Part shown: piece by piece, positions 6,374 to 41,528 of the stretch
How positions within the stretch are numbered: the stretch's first letter is position 1
Layout of the letters: each line of letters opens with the position of its first letter
Assembly (NCBI GenBank): GCA_964538685.1
Contig: CAZIFD010000001.1
Span: 13,221 to 77,220 of the forward strand
Length of the DNA: 64,000 nt
Source of the DNA: an uncultured Bdellovibrionales bacterium
Lineage (GTDB): Bacteria; Patescibacteriota; Minisyncoccia; Moranbacterales; UBA2206
Direction of reading: 5' to 3'
Position numbers and translations under genes: made by a program
Notes under the pieces: model-generated
Told to the model about the DNA's origin: nothing
The model's input: the letters and a program-made list of their open reading frames with translations, nothing else
Databases searched by the model: none

Positions 6374-8027
6374 ACAGCCTCGAGTCTTTAGCAATTGTGT
6401 TAATTGAACGGATTGGAAAGTCCGGCCAAAGAGGGTGAAAGCCCCGTAAATGAAAACACTTTTGTGGAACTAAGTCTCGGATAAGTAGGGCGGGACCGGA
6501 GAAATCCCGTTTGAAGATGGGAGCACTATCTTCCAAGGCTAAATATTGCATGAGATCGATAGCGAACCAGTACCGTGAGGGAAAGGTGAAAAGTATCCCG
6601 ATGAGGGAGATGAAATAGTATCTGAAACCATATGCTAACGAAGAGTCAGAGCGGCAGCTTGCTGCCGTAATGGCGTGCTTTTTGTAGAACGATCCAACGA
6701 GTTAGCTCTGTGTCGTTGGCTAAGCAACTTTGTTGCGGAGCCACAGTGAAAGCGAGCCTGAAAGGGCGAACATAATGGCACAGACTAGACCCGAAGCCAG
6801 GCGAGCTATTTATGAGCAGGGTGAATTTCGAGTAAAATCGAAAGGAGGCCCGAACCCACTGACCGTGCAACATCAGGGGATGACTTGTGAATAGAGGAGA
6901 AATTCCAATCGAGCTTGGCGATAGCTGGTTCTTCCCGAAATAGCTTGAGGGCTAGCGTCCTTTAAATGAGCACAAGAGGTAGAGCTACTGAATGAGATTG
7001 GCGCGGGCAACCGTAGCCGTTTCAACCAAACTCCGAATGCTTGTGTTTCTTATCTGGACAGTCAGAAATCCGGGGCTAAGCTCGGATTTCAAAAGGGTAA
7101 CAGCCCAGATCGCAATCTAAGGTCCCTAAATCTATGTTAAGTGGAAAAGGAAGTGAAGTTTCTTATACACCTAGGAGGTTGGCTTAGAAGCAGCCATCCT
7201 TTAAAGAGTGCGTAATAGCTCACTAGTCTAGAGACTTTGCGCCGAAAATGTAACGGGGCTAAAACATAGTACCGAAGATGCGGGTTCAGTATTGCGCTTG
7301 CGCAATATTGTCCGGTAGGGAAGTGTTCCATGTGCGCTGAAGCGTAAGGCGTGAGCCACCGTGGAGTGCATGGAAGTAAGAATGTTGGAATTAGTAACCG
7401 CAATTGGGGTGAGAACCCCCAACACCGAAAGTCTAAGGTTTCCTGGGCAATGCTGATCATCCCAGGGTTAGTCGGGCCTAAGGCGAGGCCGAAAGGCGTA
7501 GTCGATGGACACAAGGTTAATATTCCTTGACTTAGGTATTGTTCGATGGAGTGACGTATTTCAGTATGTTTTGCGCCTTATTGGATTGGCGTAGGCGCAC
7601 TTAGGATGTTTCCCAGGCAAATCCGGGAAACACAAGTCCAAGGTGTGACTGGAAGCTTTGCTATGGCAAGGTTAACAAAACAAAGCGGAGTACCGAGAAA
7701 AACTTCTAAGGCTAGCAATATCTAATCCGTACTAAAACCGACACAGGTAGACTGGGCGAGTAGCCTAAGGTGAACGAGTGAACCTTCGTTAAGGAACTCG
7801 GCAAAATAGCTAGACGTAAGTTCGCAAGATGTCTTCCCTAATAGCAATATTAGGGCGCAGCGAAAGCTTTTCAAGCAACTGTTTACCAAAAACACAGGTC
7901 TCTGCAAACTCTCAAGAGGAGGTATAGGGGCTGACGCCTGACCAGTGCTGGAACGTTAACGGGAGCGGTTCACGCCAATCCCCGAAGCGCCAGTGAACGT
8001 CGGCGATAACTATAATCGTCCTAAGGT

Positions 8028-19646: not shown

Positions 19647-19697
19647 TTATCCACAACCTTGCAACTTGCAAGGTTTTCTTTTGGTGATATAATAACA
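19647..19697 (+). repeat. 51-bp direct repeat copy 2 (DnaA-box + hairpin + extended -10), exactly 1100 bp from copy 1
   Basis: ttatccacaaccttgcaacttgcaaggttttcttttggtgatataataaca. Confidence 0.8.
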
Positions 19698-19768: not shown

Positions 19769-20434
19769 ATGGAAAAATTAACTTCCAAACAAAATATGGT
19801 TTTGGATTGTATCCGAGAATTGATTGATCAAGAAAAAGTCAATCCCACTACTTACAAAGTTCACAAATGTCTTAAGGGACAAGGAATTGAAGTTGGCAGT
19901 CTCAAGGGGACGGTACAAGTGATTGAGGCTTTGGAAAAAAAGGATCTAATCAAAAGAGACAAGGATAAAAAAATTTATTTAGTGGAAAACAAAAGCTTTG
20001 CCAATCTTCGCAATATTTTTTCTATTCCGATGTACGGTTTGGCTTCTTGCGGAGAGGCTTTGGCTTATGCTGAAGACAATGTGGATGGATATCTTCAAAT
20101 TTCCAAAAGTCTTTTCCGGCAGGATGATCCGGCCAAACTTTTTGCGGTTAAGTCGCTGGGAGACTCAATGGACAAGGATCAAATTTCCGATGGTGATTAT
20201 GTGGTTTTTGAAAAGAAAGATGCAGATTTTGATTTTGAGAACAAAATTGTCGTGGCGGTTATCAATGGGATGGCAACCATCAAACGCTACCGGAAACTTA
20301 AGGGAGGACTGATTGGACTTTTTCCAAATTCCACCAACAAAGTTCATCAACCGATCTACTTGGATGAATCCGACTCAATTTTGATTGCCGGAATTTTCAG
20401 AAAAGTATTGCCAGTGAGTTTTGTGAGTTTGTAA
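19769..20434 (+). CDS. lexA: LexA-family repressor (wHTH + S24 peptidase domain)
   Basis: C-terminal VKSLGDSMDKDQISDGDYVVF...NGMATIKRY (Ser/Lys dyad); 221 aa. Confidence 0.8.
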   Translation: MEKLTSKQNMVLDCIRELIDQEKVNPTTYKVHKCLKGQGIEVGSLKGTVQVIEALEKKDLIKRDKDKKIYLVENKSFANLRNIFSIPMYGLASCGEALAYAEDNVDGYLQISKSLFRQDDPAKLFAVKSLGDSMDKDQISDGDYVVFEKKDADFDFENKIVVAVINGMATIKRYRKLKGGLIGLFPNSTNKVHQPIYLDESDSILIAGIFRKVLPVSFVSL

Positions 20435-36499: not shown

Positions 36500-37174
36500 A
36501 TGTTTTATTCAATCTTGCCTCCAATTTTAGTGGTTTTGAGCCTCGTCGGTGTGATCATTTTTCTTTTCAAGAGAGCTTCCAAGGTAGCTTCTTTGAGAGA
36601 AGAAAAAGGTTTCTCGCTAGAGAGTCAAAATCAAAAAAGCGGATTCTTCGGAAGAATAGTTTTGTTTTTCAAATGTTCGCTTTGTCCAAAGATTGGCAAA
36701 TGGTTTGGATTATTTTTGGAAAAAATAGCCGAAAAAACCAAAAAAGCCTCATCTAAGTTGAGTGGAAGAATAACTGATGTTAGAACAAAGCGGGGAGTTG
36801 AAGAAAAGGATGAAGTTTTGGATAAAGTAAAAAAATATGATCTGAAAATTTTTTCCAGAAGAAAAAGAAATAAAGAAGAACTGATTGAATTGGAAAAAGA
36901 AGAAAAAGAAATCCGGCCAATGATAAGTGAGACAGTAGTTTCTCCAAGAAGCAAATCGGAAATCAAAGATATGCTGGAAGATGTTTTAATTGAAAGAATA
37001 GCTGTCAATCCAAAGGATGTGGAAGCCTATGAACGACTGGGCGAATATTATATAGAAATTGGAAATTATGAGCATGCCAAGGAATGCGTGAAGCAAGTAA
37101 TAAAACTTAGCCCAAGAAATAAGGATGCCAAGAACAAATTACGGCGCTTGGAAAGAATTATTTATGGACAATAA
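36500..37174 (+). CDS. membrane-anchored protein with C-terminal TPR-like helix pair
   Basis: N-terminal TM ILPPILVVLSLVGVIIFLF. C-terminal AYERLGEYYIEIGNYEHAKECVKQVIKLSPRNKDAKNKL. Confidence 0.45.
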   Translation: MFYSILPPILVVLSLVGVIIFLFKRASKVASLREEKGFSLESQNQKSGFFGRIVLFFKCSLCPKIGKWFGLFLEKIAEKTKKASSKLSGRITDVRTKRGVEEKDEVLDKVKKYDLKIFSRRKRNKEELIELEKEEKEIRPMISETVVSPRSKSEIKDMLEDVLIERIAVNPKDVEAYERLGEYYIEIGNYEHAKECVKQVIKLSPRNKDAKNKLRRLERIIYGQ

Positions 37175-37230
37175 TTTCTGTTGCTCTGACTTTTGCTCAA
37201 GGCCAAAGCAATAAACAATAGTTCATTATT

Positions 37231-37302
37231 GCCGCCCTAGCTCAATGGCAGAGCAACTGTTTTGTAAACAGTAGGTTATCAGTTCAACTCTGATGGGCGG
37301 CT
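37231..37302 (+). tRNA. tRNA-Thr (anticodon TGT)
   Basis: Acceptor gccgccc/gggcggc, anticodon stem actgt/acagt, loop tttgtaa. CCA not encoded. Confidence 0.8.
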
Positions 37303-37367
37303 CAGGATTTTGGAATATAATAGAATACAAGTAGGGCGCGACAAAAAACAATTGAATAAAAAATTAT

Positions 37368-37450
37368 GGGTCGGTGGCAGAGTGGTCAATTGCACCTGAC
37401 TGTAAATCAGGCGACTTCGGTCTACGGCGGTTCAAATCCGTCCCGGCCCA
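37368..37450 (+). tRNA. tRNA-Tyr (anticodon GTA), long variable arm
   Basis: Anticodon loop ctgtaaa, long extra arm cgacttcggtct, T-loop ttcaaat. Confidence 0.75.
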
Positions 37451-37467
37451 CCCCATATTTTGGAACT

Positions 37468-37540
<73 letters not shown>

Positions 37541-37572
37541 CAGGAACGATAATTATAATTCAAATTAATTTT

Positions 37573-37728
37573 ATGACACGAGAAAATCTAGCCAAAATGA
37601 AATGCGAAGTTTGCAAGAGTATAAATTATTACTCAACTCGCAACAAGAAAAAAATCAAAGAAAAATTGGAGATGAAAAAACATTGTCCCAAATGTGGCAA
37701 GCACACCATTCACAAAGAAATGAAATAA
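37573..37728 (+). CDS. rpmG: 50S ribosomal protein L33
   Basis: MTRENLAKMKCEVCKSINYYSTRNKKKIKEKLEMKKHCPKCGKHTIHKEMK (CxxC...CxxC zinc ribbon). Confidence 0.8.
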   Translation: MTRENLAKMKCEVCKSINYYSTRNKKKIKEKLEMKKHCPKCGKHTIHKEMK

Positions 37729-37787
37729 ATTATTTTTTTGCCTCCCCTTTCTAAGGGGAGGATTTCGGATGAATTAAAAATAAAAAA

Positions 37788-37858
37788 GCGGGGTTCGTAC
37801 AGTGGTAGTACGGGAGTCTCCAAAACTTCTGACGTAGGTTCGATTCCTACACCCCGTG
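37788..37858 (+). tRNA. tRNA-Trp (anticodon CCA)
   Basis: D-arm gtac-agtggta-gtac, anticodon stem ggagt/acttc, loop ctccaaa, T-arm gtagg-ttcgatt-cctac. Confidence 0.75.
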
Positions 37859-37954
37859 CATTGTGGAAACGGCCACTTATTGAGAGGCTGTTTTTGTTTG
37901 GGAAAAAGTTGTTGGATTAATAAAAAAAGCTTTTTAAGCGCAGGATATATTAAA

Positions 37955-37986
37955 ATTCCATTTTGGCATATTACAAATTGGAATAT
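37955..37986 (+). promoter_or_regulatory. C-box-like inverted repeat ATTCCATTTTG-N9-CAAATTGGAAT immediately upstream of the controller-protein gene
   Basis: attccattttggcatattacaaattggaat; arms are 10/11 complementary. It ends 14 bp before the ATG at 38000. Confidence 0.55.
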
Positions 37987-37999
37987 ATCATATATACAT

Positions 38000-38221
38000 A
38001 TGAAAAAAGATATTTATTCCAGCGGTCATAAATTTTTAGCACAGCAATTAAAGATAGCGCGTGAAGCGTCGGGTTTTGATCAAAAAAAGGTTGCTGAACT
38101 TTTAGACAAAACGCAGTCTTATGTTTCAAAAATTGAGACAGGTCAGCGCCGAATTGATGTGATTCAGTTGCAGGGATTTGCGAAGATTTATAAAAAGAAG
38201 ATAGAATTTTTTATTAAATAA
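38000..38221 (+). CDS. XRE-family HTH protein, R-M controller (C) protein-like, 73 aa
   Basis: LAQQLKIAREASGFDQKKVAELLDKTQSYVSKIETGQRRIDVIQLQGFAKIY. It is the internal start of tool ORF 37856-38221, whose upstream part overlaps tRNA-Trp. Confidence 0.65.
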   Translation: MKKDIYSSGHKFLAQQLKIAREASGFDQKKVAELLDKTQSYVSKIETGQRRIDVIQLQGFAKIYKKKIEFFIK

Positions 38222-38231
38222 ATTAAAATTT

Positions 38232-38678
38232 ATGTGGGCAAAAAACTTAACAGGTATTAATGATGGAATTTTTAGAACTATTAATGGCAACTCCGATGAG
38301 ATGATTGGGGTGGGGAGATGTATGAAGGCGGGATTTCCTTGTTCACGTGCCGATGTAACCAATGGAAGATATGATGCTATTATTGATGTGGGAAATAATA
38401 AACTTCTCAGGGTGCAAATAAAAGGCACATCTGGCGGTAGTGTTAGTTTTACTGGAGGAGGCAGAAGTGGAAAGCAGATTAGCAGGGAAGTCAAACAAAG
38501 AACTTATAAATATTCTCCGAATGATTGTGATATAATTTTAGTTGTTGATGGCAGAAGCGGAGAGTGTTATATTATTCCAATTGAGGATGTTCAAAAAATG
38601 AGCGTTTCTAATTCGCTGGAAAAATTAAAAGCTTATAGGGAGAATTGGGATTTGCTTAAAAAATTGGCTGGAGTTTAA
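38232..38678 (+). CDS. candidate restriction endonuclease (small PD-(D/E)xK-like protein) convergent with the m5C methyltransferase
   Basis: 148 aa; RYDAIIDVGNNKLLRVQIKGTSGG...CDIILVVDGRSGECYIIP is compatible with a D...(E/Q)xK nuclease core. Placement C-gene -> this ORF -> <- MTase with a 4-bp 3' overlap. The assignment comes from context. Confidence 0.35.
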   Translation: MWAKNLTGINDGIFRTINGNSDEMIGVGRCMKAGFPCSRADVTNGRYDAIIDVGNNKLLRVQIKGTSGGSVSFTGGGRSGKQISREVKQRTYKYSPNDCDIILVVDGRSGECYIIPIEDVQKMSVSNSLEKLKAYRENWDLLKKLAGV

Positions 38679-40240
38679 TTCATTGCTTTCATCATTTTTC
38701 GTGCAACTGCTTCCAAAACAGTCACAGTCACGGAATTTCCAGCTTGCTTGTAAAGTGCAGAGTCGGCCAAGGCTGGAAGCTTGAAATTTTTTGGAAAACC
38801 TTGCAGTCTAAAACATTCAATTGGAGTCAGCTTTCTGATTCCTTTTTTGTCTTTAATAATTGGAACATTGTGACCTCCCATGCCCATATTGGCAGTGAGA
38901 GTGGGGCATACACCCTTTTTATTTTCCCGGACATATTGTCTTCTCCATTGATAAACCTTTCCTTCTTCTTTCACAAATCCTTTAAGTTTTGCGAAAAGAG
39001 GCTTACCATTATAATAGTATTTTTCAGGCACATTTTTCTCTAAAAGATCCGTGACTTTAACTTTTAATTTTTGTGGCTCAGGAAATTCAAATTTATCTAT
39101 ATAATTCTTATTTTTGAATCCCACAATATAAATTCTTTCCCGATTTTGTGGAATGTTTCCGTATTCCATGCTATTCAAAACTTTAGTTTTTACATGATAT
39201 CCCAAGTCTTCCAATGTTTTGAGAATTATTTTAAAGGTTTTTCCTCCATCGTGTCCTCTTAAATTTTTTACATTTTCCAAAAGGAATCCGGTAGGACTTC
39301 TTGTTTCTAAAATTCTCGCGATGTCAAAAAATAAATTGCCACGATCTTTTTCATCATTGAATCCCTTGCGGTATCCAGCTATGGAAAATGCCTGGCAGGG
39401 AAATCCGCCTAAAAGAAAATCAAATTCCGGCAAATCACCAATGCTGATTTTTCTTATGTCTTCTACGATGAGTTTGGATTTTTTGAAATTCAAATCATAG
39501 GTAGCTTTGCAATTTTTTTCAAAGTCATTTGCAAAAACTGTCTCAAAGCCTGCATTTTCAAATCCAAGCCTGATGCCTCCGACTCCAGCAAACAAATCAA
39601 GCGTTCTAAAAAGTTTTTGCTTGGTTGCATTGTTATTTTCAAGGCTTCTTTTTATCTCAATAACCACGCCTCTAATTTCAACCTCTTTTCTGTAAATCGG
39701 AAGCATTGTTTGGTTTGCCGGTTGTAACCGGAACTTGTTTTTTTCTCGGTAAATTTTTTTTAATGTAGCCTCGTTGTCGTCAATTATTGCAACAACAGTC
39801 TGACCATTTTCCGCCACAGATTGTTTTTTAATGACTACAATGTCCCCGTCAAATATTCCATCATCAATCATACTATCTCCTTGCACTCTTAGGGCATAAT
39901 ATTTTCCAGATTTGTTTATGGTGCTAGTAGCAATCATTATATTTTCATCTCTTGTTTCAATAGCTTTAATCGGCTGTCCAGCTGCGATTGTTCCGACAAA
40001 TGGTATTTTGACTAAGTTATATGGGCTTTTCTTTTTCAATTCAATCCCTCTGGCCGAGCTTCCGTTTTTTTCTATAAATCCTTTTTTCTCTAATGTTTCA
40101 ATATGTTGGTGTACGGTTGATAGTGCAGATAGTTTAAAATGTTTCCGTATTTCTTCAATGGTGGGGGATAATCCTTTTTTGTTGATATAGGATGTTATAA
40201 AGTCCAGTATTTTTTTTTGCTTTTTTGTTAGTGTGGGCAT
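38675..40240 (-). CDS. LexA-like repressor (wHTH + intact S24 autopeptidase domain) fused to a C5-cytosine DNA methyltransferase
   Basis: N-terminal 200 aa: LexA DBD, cleavage-site-like AAGQP, RVQGDSMIDDGIFDGDIVVIKK...ATLKKIY (Ser/Lys dyad). C-terminal 320 aa: m5C-MTase motifs DLFAGVGGIRLGFENAG (I), GGFPCQAFSIAG (IV), ENVKNL (VI), QAGNSV (X). Confidence 0.8.
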   Translation of the reverse strand: MPTLTKKQKKILDFITSYINKKGLSPTIEEIRKHFKLSALSTVHQHIETLEKKGFIEKNGSSARGIELKKKSPYNLVKIPFVGTIAAGQPIKAIETRDENIMIATSTINKSGKYYALRVQGDSMIDDGIFDGDIVVIKKQSVAENGQTVVAIIDDNEATLKKIYREKNKFRLQPANQTMLPIYRKEVEIRGVVIEIKRSLENNNATKQKLFRTLDLFAGVGGIRLGFENAGFETVFANDFEKNCKATYDLNFKKSKLIVEDIRKISIGDLPEFDFLLGGFPCQAFSIAGYRKGFNDEKDRGNLFFDIARILETRSPTGFLLENVKNLRGHDGGKTFKIILKTLEDLGYHVKTKVLNSMEYGNIPQNRERIYIVGFKNKNYIDKFEFPEPQKLKVKVTDLLEKNVPEKYYYNGKPLFAKLKGFVKEEGKVYQWRRQYVRENKKGVCPTLTANMGMGGHNVPIIKDKKGIRKLTPIECFRLQGFPKNFKLPALADSALYKQAGNSVTVTVLEAVARKMMKAMN

Positions 40241-40541
40241 ATAATTAGCCTAATATAAGTTTATTATATTAGTATTATATACCGAAAATTTACCGAAGTA
40301 CAAATACATCCAATTACGGCTTAAAATAACCCAATAATATATTGAGTCGAGACCGTCATCGACCGGGATTTTCCTTAAAGCTTACCTAAAACTAGGTGCT
40401 AGACCGGAACGGTGTGCATAGTAAAATCAAACCAAATAGAGTCTTATTTAGGGCCTCTTTTTTGGTTCTAACTTTTTGCTAAGCGTGTATGATGTTAGAG
40501 CTTTGTGTGGCAAAAGAGAAATATAAATTTTAACTAATCCT

Positions 40542-41528
40542 ATGATTCCACAAAAACTAAGATGGGGAGATGAAATAAGAGTTGTCGCTCCCTCAAGCAG
40601 TCTTTCAATTATTTCTAAAGAAAATAGGGAATTGGCGATAAAAAAATTAAGCGAATTGGGTTTTAAAATATCATTTTCTAAAAATGTGGAAGAAATTGAC
40701 GACTTTAAATCTTCGTCAATTGAGTCAAGAATATCCGATTTGCATGAAGCATTTTCAGATAAAAATGTAAAAGGAATTTTAACAGCAGTTGGTGGTTTTA
40801 ATGTTAACCAGATATTAAAATATCTTGATTATGAATTGATAAAAAATAATCCCAAGATTTTATGTGGTTATTCAGATATCACCGCTCTATCTAATGCAAT
40901 CTATACAAAAACAGGACTGGTTAACTATTCAGGTCCTGTTTTTTCGACCTTTGGTATGATGAAAGGAAACGACTATACAGTTGAATATTTCAAGAAATGT
41001 CTATCAGAAGAAAAAGCATTTGAAATTGGGCCATCTAGAGAATGGAGTGATGATAAATGGTATTTGGATCAAGAGAAAAGAGAATTTATTAAAAATAATG
41101 GTGAAATGATAATAAATGAAGGAGAAGCAGAAAGTAAGATAATCGGAGGTAATTTATGTACATTTAACCTTTTGATTGGGACAGAATTTATGCCAAGTAT
41201 CAAGAATTCAATTTTATTTTTAGAAGATGATAATATGGTTGGAGAATTATTCATCAAAGAGTTTGATCGAAATTTGCAGTCATTGCTTCATCAGCCAGAA
41301 TTTTCTGCTGTAAAGGGGATTGTTCTGGGTCGTTTTCAAAAAAGTGGCAATATGAAAAAAGATAAGATTGTAAAAATGATTAAAAATAAAAGGGAGCTTG
41401 AGAATATCCCTATTGTGGCTAATTTAGATTTTGGGCATACTTCTCCGTTATTTACCTTTCCAATCGGTGGAATTGCCAAGCTTTCAGCTAATAAGGGTAA
41501 TGTGAAATTAGAAATTATTGAACATTAA
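40542..41528 (+). CDS. LD-carboxypeptidase (S66 family, LdcA/MccF-like)
   Basis: GDEIRVVAPSSS..., GILTAVGGFNVNQIL, CGYSDITAL (Ser nucleophile), C-terminal His/Glu region. Confidence 0.7.
   Translation: MIPQKLRWGDEIRVVAPSSSLSIISKENRELAIKKLSELGFKISFSKNVEEIDDFKSSSIESRISDLHEAFSDKNVKGILTAVGGFNVNQILKYLDYELIKNNPKILCGYSDITALSNAIYTKTGLVNYSGPVFSTFGMMKGNDYTVEYFKKCLSEEKAFEIGPSREWSDDKWYLDQEKREFIKNNGEMIINEGEAESKIIGGNLCTFNLLIGTEFMPSIKNSILFLEDDNMVGELFIKEFDRNLQSLLHQPEFSAVKGIVLGRFQKSGNMKKDKIVKMIKNKRELENIPIVANLDFGHTSPLFTFPIGGIAKLSANKGNVKLEIIEH

Follow-up and report, generated by a model that had tools for sequence, protein, structure and literature searches.

Organization of the locus

We analysed a 64-kb stretch of contig CAZIFD010000001.1 from an uncultured Patescibacteriota bacterium, hereafter the window. 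Its base composition, gene neighbourhood and nearest relatives assign it to Patescibacteria, close to Moranbacteria. Within it, positions 37955-40305 (2.35 kb) are, in our judgement, highly likely to constitute a Type II restriction-modification (R-M) unit controlled by a C (controller) protein. C-controlled Type II R-M systems are a known kind; what is new here is the combination of a C protein with a LexA-type methylase-repressor, and the uncharacterised family to which the nuclease belongs. Our computations cover gene structure, folds, conservation and linkage, the conservation and co-variation of operators, and the depletion of words; from these we infer cleavage specificity, binding, regulation and self-cleavage. 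The unit consists of three genes:

38000-38221, plus strand: C gene, 73 aa, XRE-type helix-turn-helix (HTH) protein
38232-38678, plus strand: R gene, 148 aa, PD-(D/E)XK restriction endonuclease candidate
38675-40240, minus strand: M gene, 521 aa, LexA-Dcm fusion methyltransferase (methylase)

The R gene starts 10 bp past the C gene, and the stops of R and of the convergent M gene overlap by 4 bp (38675-38678). The first-pass annotation, a reading of the window's letters, had placed the 73-aa HTH gene, the 148-aa open reading frame and the overlap in just this way, and all three genes are called with identical lengths in independent public assemblies. The LexA fusion of the methylase and the recognition site were absent from its account of this segment.

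Two related loci, L001 and L002, align with the window over a stretch that begins at the C operator (37949 and 37955) and ends at about 40305, just beyond the methylase promoter. L002 lies in a different genomic context, and L001 has in common with the window only the tRNA-Trp gene upstream. Since homology across differing contexts spans exactly the interval from operator to methylase promoter, this interval appears to be a mobile unit, and because the homology ends at these two elements, C, R and M move together.

The nuclease is linked to one type of C5 methylase

To our annotation of the window we added 34 related places encoding the nuclease or its relatives, comprising 19 genome loci, 10 metagenome loci and 5 distant relatives. 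The first-pass annotation had considered that the 148-aa protein might be found widely away from methyltransferases. Instead, a C5 methylase adjoins the nuclease gene in all 34 places, and at least 33 of these methylases have the same target-recognition region. The nuclease converges on the C5 methylase gene in 19 of the 19 genome loci, which come from many Patescibacteria classes, and likewise in 10 of the 10 metagenome loci. The distant relatives, 34-39% identical and carrying an extra N-terminal domain, derive from a Helicobacter pullorum prophage, a Blautia phage, Campylobacter jejuni, a Helicobacter species and a Flavobacterium. Their R and M genes are variously co-directional and overlapping, separated, or convergent; all five adjoin a C5 methylase, and all five methylases contain the recognition-region motif of the window's, YQ[WF]RR.YVR.NK..PTLTAN.G.GGHNV. 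The nuclease thus tracks one methylase type across four phyla and three gene orders, which argues for a restriction enzyme rather than a homing or repair enzyme.

Some loci show decay. In L019 the nuclease gene is internally deleted beside an intact methylase, and in L003 a stop codon (6415-6417) stands in place of the invariant nuclease Trp139, again with the methylase intact; the latter is an inactivating mutation or, less likely, a recoded stop. Loss of the nuclease beside an intact methylase (L019, possibly L003) follows the usual order of decay of R-M systems.

Fold and conserved residues of the 148-aa nuclease

The nuclease assignment, which the first-pass annotation had drawn from context, was borne out by both profile and structure. 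The protein scores 33.1 bits against Pfam PF11645 PDDEXK_5 (gathering score 26.1), and an AlphaFold model built from 16 homologues (pLDDT 70.7, pTM 0.69) has an alpha-beta-beta-beta core. The best Protein Data Bank (PDB) match of this model by Foldseek was I-Ssp6803I (2OST; E 3e-7, TM 0.71), followed by Hjc resolvases and SPARDA nuclease domains. Sequence and profile searches of the PDB with the nuclease returned spurious haemagglutinin matches only, so the link to I-Ssp6803I rests on the Pfam and fold matches. The possible D...QxK core noticed at first pass was recovered among the residues invariant in all 16 homologues, which are the catalytic candidates:

38298-38300, plus strand: E23, in the first helix
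38373-38375, plus strand: D48, at the start of the second strand
38415-38417, plus strand: Q62, in the third strand
38421-38423, plus strand: K64, in the third strand

The family as a whole is small, with 314 clusters among 1.84 billion representatives, and occurs in forms of about 150, about 220 and about 300 aa. No NCBIfam model matches the nuclease, and none of the PLSDB plasmids encodes a relative. The family is uncharacterised as a restriction enzyme, in that we found neither a characterised restriction member nor a PADLOC model for it. The protein presumably acts as a homo-oligomer.

Unrelated nucleases occupy the same slot

We then compared 80 metagenome loci whose methylases are 63-90% identical to that of the window, 71 of them with enough downstream sequence. 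The PDDEXK_5 nuclease was present in only 10 of the 71, and nearly all others had a different convergent gene a few bases past the methylase stop. Taking genome and metagenome loci together, the genes in this slot belong to at least nine unrelated families:

PDDEXK_5: 29 loci
Bsp6I-like: 22 loci; Pfam RE_Bsp6I and a PADLOC Type II restriction enzyme model
349-aa: 8 loci
NgoFVII-like: 8 loci; Pfam NgoFVII C-terminal domain and a PADLOC Type II restriction enzyme model
281-aa: 7 loci
277-aa: 6 loci; a PADLOC Type II restriction enzyme model
360-aa: 6 loci
406-aa: 2 loci
323-aa: 1 locus

Profile comparison of the PDDEXK_5 family with the other slot families revealed no similarity (all probabilities <1%). 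The 349-, 281-, 360-, 323- and 406-aa families have no Pfam match, and the first four of them, which were the ones compared with PADLOC, have no match there either. We regard these five families as candidate new restriction enzymes for the same target.

One locus, L020, shows the exchange directly. It occupies the same chromosomal site and contains the tRNA cluster, C gene and operator as in the window, and a methylase gene about 84% identical at the DNA level (90% at the protein level). Its homology to the window, however, ends at 38214 and resumes at 38686, and between these points a 277-aa restriction-enzyme-like gene replaces the 148-aa gene, so that only the nuclease gene has been exchanged.

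The inferred target is GCNGC

The recognition region of the methylase (residues 396-470) is its best-conserved part; in 98 homologues it is 83-91% identical to that of the window, whichever family fills the slot. This constancy suggests that all these methylases very probably modify one common sequence. As to what this sequence is, NgoFVII recognises GCSGC. The target of M.Bsp6I is GCNGC (PMC2790894). In the window GCNGC occurs 37 times against 93 expected (observed/expected 0.40) and is the most depleted of its word class. In 630 kb of related loci it is again the most depleted, ahead of GGCC, with 723 occurrences against 1265 expected (0.57). Such depletion is what selection against an unmethylated target would produce. 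Given the Bsp6I-like and NgoFVII-like partners in the slot, the constant recognition region and the depletion, the target is probably GCNGC, methylated as G-5mC-NGC.

Other words were considered. GGCC is consistently depleted but less so than GCNGC, and no HaeIII- or NgoPII-type partner was seen, making it a weak alternative. By far the most depleted 4-bp palindromes of the window are ACGT (8 sites against 49 expected) and TCGA (29 against 133); we rejected them as targets because this depletion is not common to the related loci. Its probable cause is other R-M systems, either of this genome or of its phages.

The C protein and its operator

The 73-aa protein matches Pfam HTH_3 (E 5.5e-12), in line with its first-pass description as an XRE-type HTH protein. 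Against PDB sequences it finds C.AhdI (E 0.002) and C.BclI (E 0.005), and it matches the PADLOC Control_protein model (E 1e-5), with generic HTH models scoring higher. The best support for a controller function is genomic context. Slot genes of five different nuclease families have a C homologue 5' of them on the same strand; since these homologues precede several unrelated nucleases and have a conserved operator near the start codon, the protein probably behaves as a controller. The regulatory elements upstream of the C gene are:

37955-37984, no strand assigned: C operator, 30 bp, two abutting 15-bp imperfect palindromes
37963-37991, plus strand: predicted C-R promoter, -35 TTGGCA, 17-nt spacer, -10 TATCAT (10 of 12 matches in a consensus scan), overlapping the operator

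An inverted repeat before the C gene had been noted in the first-pass annotation with a 9-nt spacer. Its arms, ATTCCATTTTG (37955-37965) and CAAATTGGAAT (37974-37984), are indeed there and are complementary at 10 of 11 positions, but the spacer is 8 nt. These arms are the outer arms of two boxes, ATTCCATTTTGGCAT (37955-37969) and ATTACAAATTGGAAT (37970-37984), which read ATTCCA-N3-TGGCAT and ATTACA-N3-TGGAAT and are each a 5/6 palindrome. The repeat by itself is weak evidence, because repeats of equal quality are not rare in this AT-rich window, which has 39 of them where Markov simulations give about 16; an intergenic stretch of 140 nt would be expected to hold about 0.04. The operator is convincing because it is conserved while the flanking DNA diverges. 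A 31-bp block, ATTCCATTTTGGCATATTACAAATTGGAATA, is identical or nearly so before C homologues in L001, L002, L009 and L020, with flanks that cannot be aligned; the C proteins behind it are 55-85% identical. Where C proteins are only 50-60% identical, a variant operator lies upstream that keeps the 15+15 layout and the TGGAAT half-sites. A conserved two-box site just upstream of the C start agrees with the earlier likening to a C-box; its sequence is not of the classical GACT/AGTC type. Neither ATTCC nor GGAAT occurs in the text of the C-box survey PMC2632904, motif logos excluded.

The operator ends 15 nt 5' of the C start codon (ATG). As this codon lies 9 nt past the -10 element and lacks a Shine-Dalgarno sequence, the C-R transcript is probably leaderless. 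The same survey gives 17-18 nt between C-box and start codon for leaderless C genes (PMC2632904); the 15-nt distance is close to this and agrees with a leaderless transcript.

The methylase is fused to a complete LexA

The M gene encodes three domains:

40046-40240, minus strand: LexA winged HTH (Pfam, residues 1-65)
39977-39982, minus strand: Ala87-Gly88 cleavage site (by conservation)
39659-40003, minus strand: S24 peptidase domain (Pfam, residues 80-194)
38690-39610, minus strand: C5 methylase domain (Pfam DNA_methylase, E 1.8e-93, residues 211-517)
38831-39055, minus strand: target-recognition region (residues 396-470)

The N-terminal 200 residues score 187 bits against the TIGR00498 lexA equivalog model (cutoff 111). 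The residues A87, G88, S123 and K161 are kept in essentially all of about 93 fused homologues, and the motif IV Cys and motif VI Glu of the methylase are conserved in 98 of 98. The LexA-S24-C5 architecture was found in all 120 best database matches, and the fusion is very common in Patescibacteria; NCBI names some of the homologues LexA. It also recurs with a second methylase class. In L017 (7695-9560) LexA DNA-binding and S24 domains are fused to an N6/N4 DNA methylase (621 aa), whose gene is divergent from an unfused Dcm accompanied by the same nuclease and Vsr. We found no description of a LexA-methylase fusion in the literature; Sanchez-Osuna et al. 2017, on the Patescibacteria SOS network, could mention it. 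LexA goes unmentioned in a 2025 review of R-M biology, whose regulatory schemes do not include a C protein together with a LexA-type methylase-repressor.

The promoter of the methylase gene contains the following elements:

40274-40279, minus strand: -10 TATAAT, conserved in aligned upstream regions
40281-40297, minus strand: direct-repeat operator TTCGGT-N5-TTCGGT, abutting the -10, presumed site of the methylase's own LexA domain
40298-40303, minus strand: weak -35 TTGTAC, read from the sequence

The exact direct repeat occurs once in the 64 kb. One copy is found at the same place in 8 loci, and variants in most of 86 loci. Its two halves vary in concert, as either the TTCGG or the TTCTA type, and with the type varies the recognition helix of LexA (S-T-[IV]-H-[EQ]-H-I versus S-T-A-H-H-Y-I). 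This co-variation suggests that the fused LexA domain binds the direct repeat and would thereby repress its own gene. PMC7739468 cites a report of a LexA motif in Patescibacteria that is a direct repeat. A search of the window for a wider LexA regulon gave no second exact operator; matches with two mismatches were not above chance, and the best one was inside a coding region. recA is absent from the 64-kb window.

Two further features lie near this promoter in related loci. A Vsr gene is divergent from the LexA-methylase promoter region in 16 of the 80 metagenome loci (L023, L026-L029, L031, L036, L037, L041, L043, L052, L079, L084, L093 and others), an arrangement in which the direct-repeat operator could control both genes. 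Of 86 loci, 58 have a DnaA-box-like word (TGTGGATAA or its reverse complement TTATCCACA) before this promoter, about 21 bp upstream of the direct repeat (L001-L099); in the window, at about 40304-40316, the word is degenerate.

A stand-alone LexA paralog of about 200 aa is encoded at 19769-20368 and shares 31% identity with the LexA portion of the methylase. It is preceded by a perfect palindrome, CCTTGCAA-c-TTGCAAGG (19657-19673), and by the DnaA-box-like TTATCCACA (19647-19655). Because the upstream site of this paralog is palindromic, the genome appears to have two LexA-type repressors with different presumed operators.

Proposed operation of the unit

Taken together, the genes would operate as follows. 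The methylase would keep host GCNGC modified as G-5mC-NGC and limit its own synthesis through its LexA domain bound to TTCGGT-N5-TTCGGT in its promoter. The C protein would bind the two-box operator over its own weak promoter and set the timing and level of the nuclease, first delaying and then capping transcription of the C-R operon, as in PvuII-type systems. The 148-aa nuclease would cut unmodified GCNGC in incoming DNA. For GCNGC methylation with self-limited methylase synthesis, C timing and nuclease cutting, strong comparative evidence and analogy with characterised systems point this way. Self-cleavage at Ala87-Gly88, presumably triggered by RecA and DNA damage, may lift the repression of the methylase gene, as the conserved catalytic residues, taken by themselves, suggest.

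A more speculative proposal, which we hold only tentatively and consider somewhat doubtful, is that the R-M system is damage-responsive through its LexA module, and that the LexA-methylase is a stable platform on which Patescibacteria exchange unrelated nucleases of one specificity. A RecA-triggered cut at Ala87-Gly88 would then detach the DNA-binding domain from the methylase. If so, the balance between modification and restriction would shift during repair or replication of damaged DNA, in effect restriction alleviation of a Type II kind. Degradation of the cleaved methylase would instead turn the system into a suicide switch set off by damage.

Comparison with known systems

In PvuII-type systems (C.PvuII, C.AhdI, C.EcoO109I), as here, the gene of a small XRE-type controller immediately precedes that of a small PD-(D/E)XK nuclease, with a two-box operator near a leaderless start codon and the methylase on the other strand. 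R.PvuII has 157 aa. The window's operator, however, is of the ATTCCA-N3-TGGAAT type, and similarity to the known C proteins is weak. In addition, as the methylase of the window has its own fused repressor, one system combines two regulatory schemes, unlike the PvuII type.

Likeness to the Bsp6I system lies in Bsp6I-family nucleases occupying the same slot beside methylases with the same recognition region, and in the same probable target, GCNGC. In contrast to Bsp6I, the nuclease of the window shows no similarity to that family by sequence or profile, and the likeness is drawn through other loci. I-Ssp6803I (2OST, PF11645) shares with the nuclease its Pfam family and length (148 aa) and is its best structural match; it has been reported to resemble R.PvuII (PMC3384342). 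Unlike I-Ssp6803I, the gene in the window lies outside any intron, is always linked to a methylase and encodes a protein with only about 18% sequence identity, and its target is probably a short palindrome instead of a 23-bp site.

The SsoII, Ecl18kI, EcoRII and MspI methylases have an N-terminal DNA-binding repressor domain and an operator in their own promoter (PMC2760811; PMC12707154). The C5 methylase of the window resembles them in both respects, but its N-terminal domain is a complete LexA (winged HTH plus self-cleaving S24 peptidase) and its operator a direct repeat. Because R and M converge, this operator cannot also control R, a task left to the C protein. With the LexA SOS repressor the fusion has in common the Ala-Gly site, the Ser/Lys dyad, a score above the equivalog cutoff and the operator in its own promoter; unlike it, LexA here is joined to a DNA methylase, with its sole exact operator in the 64 kb at its own promoter.

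Alternative explanations

Several observations weigh against the interpretation as an R-M unit targeting GCNGC. Confidence in the nuclease model is moderate, with residues 1-19 and 77-89 unmodelled. Among characterised proteins the nuclease is closest to a homing endonuclease and not to a restriction enzyme, none of the PADLOC Type II restriction enzyme models matches it, and its identity of 63-94% across Patescibacteria classes is unusually high for a restriction enzyme. The GCNGC call draws on family names of neighbouring genes in other loci and on word statistics, and GGCC is depleted too (0.56-0.66). The C protein resembles characterised C proteins only weakly, and its operator, with half-sites ATTCCA/TGGAAT, is unlike the classical GACT/AGTC C-box. 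Most loci carrying the 148-aa nuclease lack the C gene, which is hence not obligatory, making C an optional regulator.

The alternative that fares best, improbable as it is, sees in the 148-aa protein a free-standing selfish homing endonuclease at the methylase 3' end, cutting a long target in alleles that lack it and having no methylase partner. Pfam family and fold both place I-Ssp6803I closest among characterised proteins, and the replacement of unrelated genes in the slot with sharp boundaries resembles cassette mobility. However, an Rfam scan of 36500-41500 at E<=1 found tRNAs only, and neither a group I intron nor any further RNA element. One methylase recognition type tracked over four phyla and three arrangements indicates functional coupling, not a fixed DNA target. 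Moreover, other slot occupants match restriction enzyme models, and a controller gene with its own operator precedes the nuclease.

We consider it very improbable that the nuclease serves repair or the SOS response in partnership with the LexA-methylase, whether as a Vsr analogue nicking the T:G mismatches that arise from 5-methylcytosine deamination or as a junction resolvase. The gene does adjoin a C5 methylase, as vsr adjoins dcm, and moreover one fused to LexA; the model resembles Hjc resolvases, and sequence conservation is high. However, the 148-aa nuclease has no Pfam match to the Vsr family, and separate, genuine Vsr genes co-occur with it in L005, L013, L017 and L093, so the Vsr role is already filled. 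The sharing of the slot with restriction enzyme families and the selection against an unmethylated target implied by GCNGC depletion also speak against repair. Least probable of all is an independent two-gene module of HTH protein and nuclease (toxin-antitoxin or abortive infection) that lies beside the methylase incidentally: XRE-type HTH proteins are common as antitoxins, and the best NCBIfam and PADLOC HTH matches include HipB-like and other non-R-M families, but most nuclease loci lack the HTH gene while all have the methylase, the HTH gene is found before unrelated slot nucleases as well, and homology in differing contexts runs exactly from operator to methylase promoter.

The R-M architecture of C and R on one strand with a convergent M, proposed at first pass, is thus supported by the linkage, by the slot partners and by the C homologues before several nuclease families. 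If confirmed, the 148-aa proteins would be a new restriction enzyme family, among the smallest Type II enzymes, and a natural bridge between restriction and homing nucleases. The at least nine unrelated nuclease families beside one methylase type would offer a ready set of GCNGC candidates, five or six of them without any annotation, and a clean example of cassette exchange. A self-cleaving repressor on the methylase would tie R-M control to the SOS signal; this fusion is widespread among Patescibacteria, and LexA is also joined to an N6/N4 methylase.

Genomic surroundings of the unit

Upstream of the unit the window has a cluster of tRNA-Thr, tRNA-Tyr, tRNA-Thr, rpmG and tRNA-Trp (the last at 37788-37859). 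In other genomes too, R-M units of this type are often found directly 3' of a tRNA gene (Trp, Glu, Gly, Ser, Ile or Gln, depending on the genome); besides the window, this is the case in L001, L012, L013, L015, L018, L020 and L062. The vicinity of tRNA genes may be a preferred insertion context.

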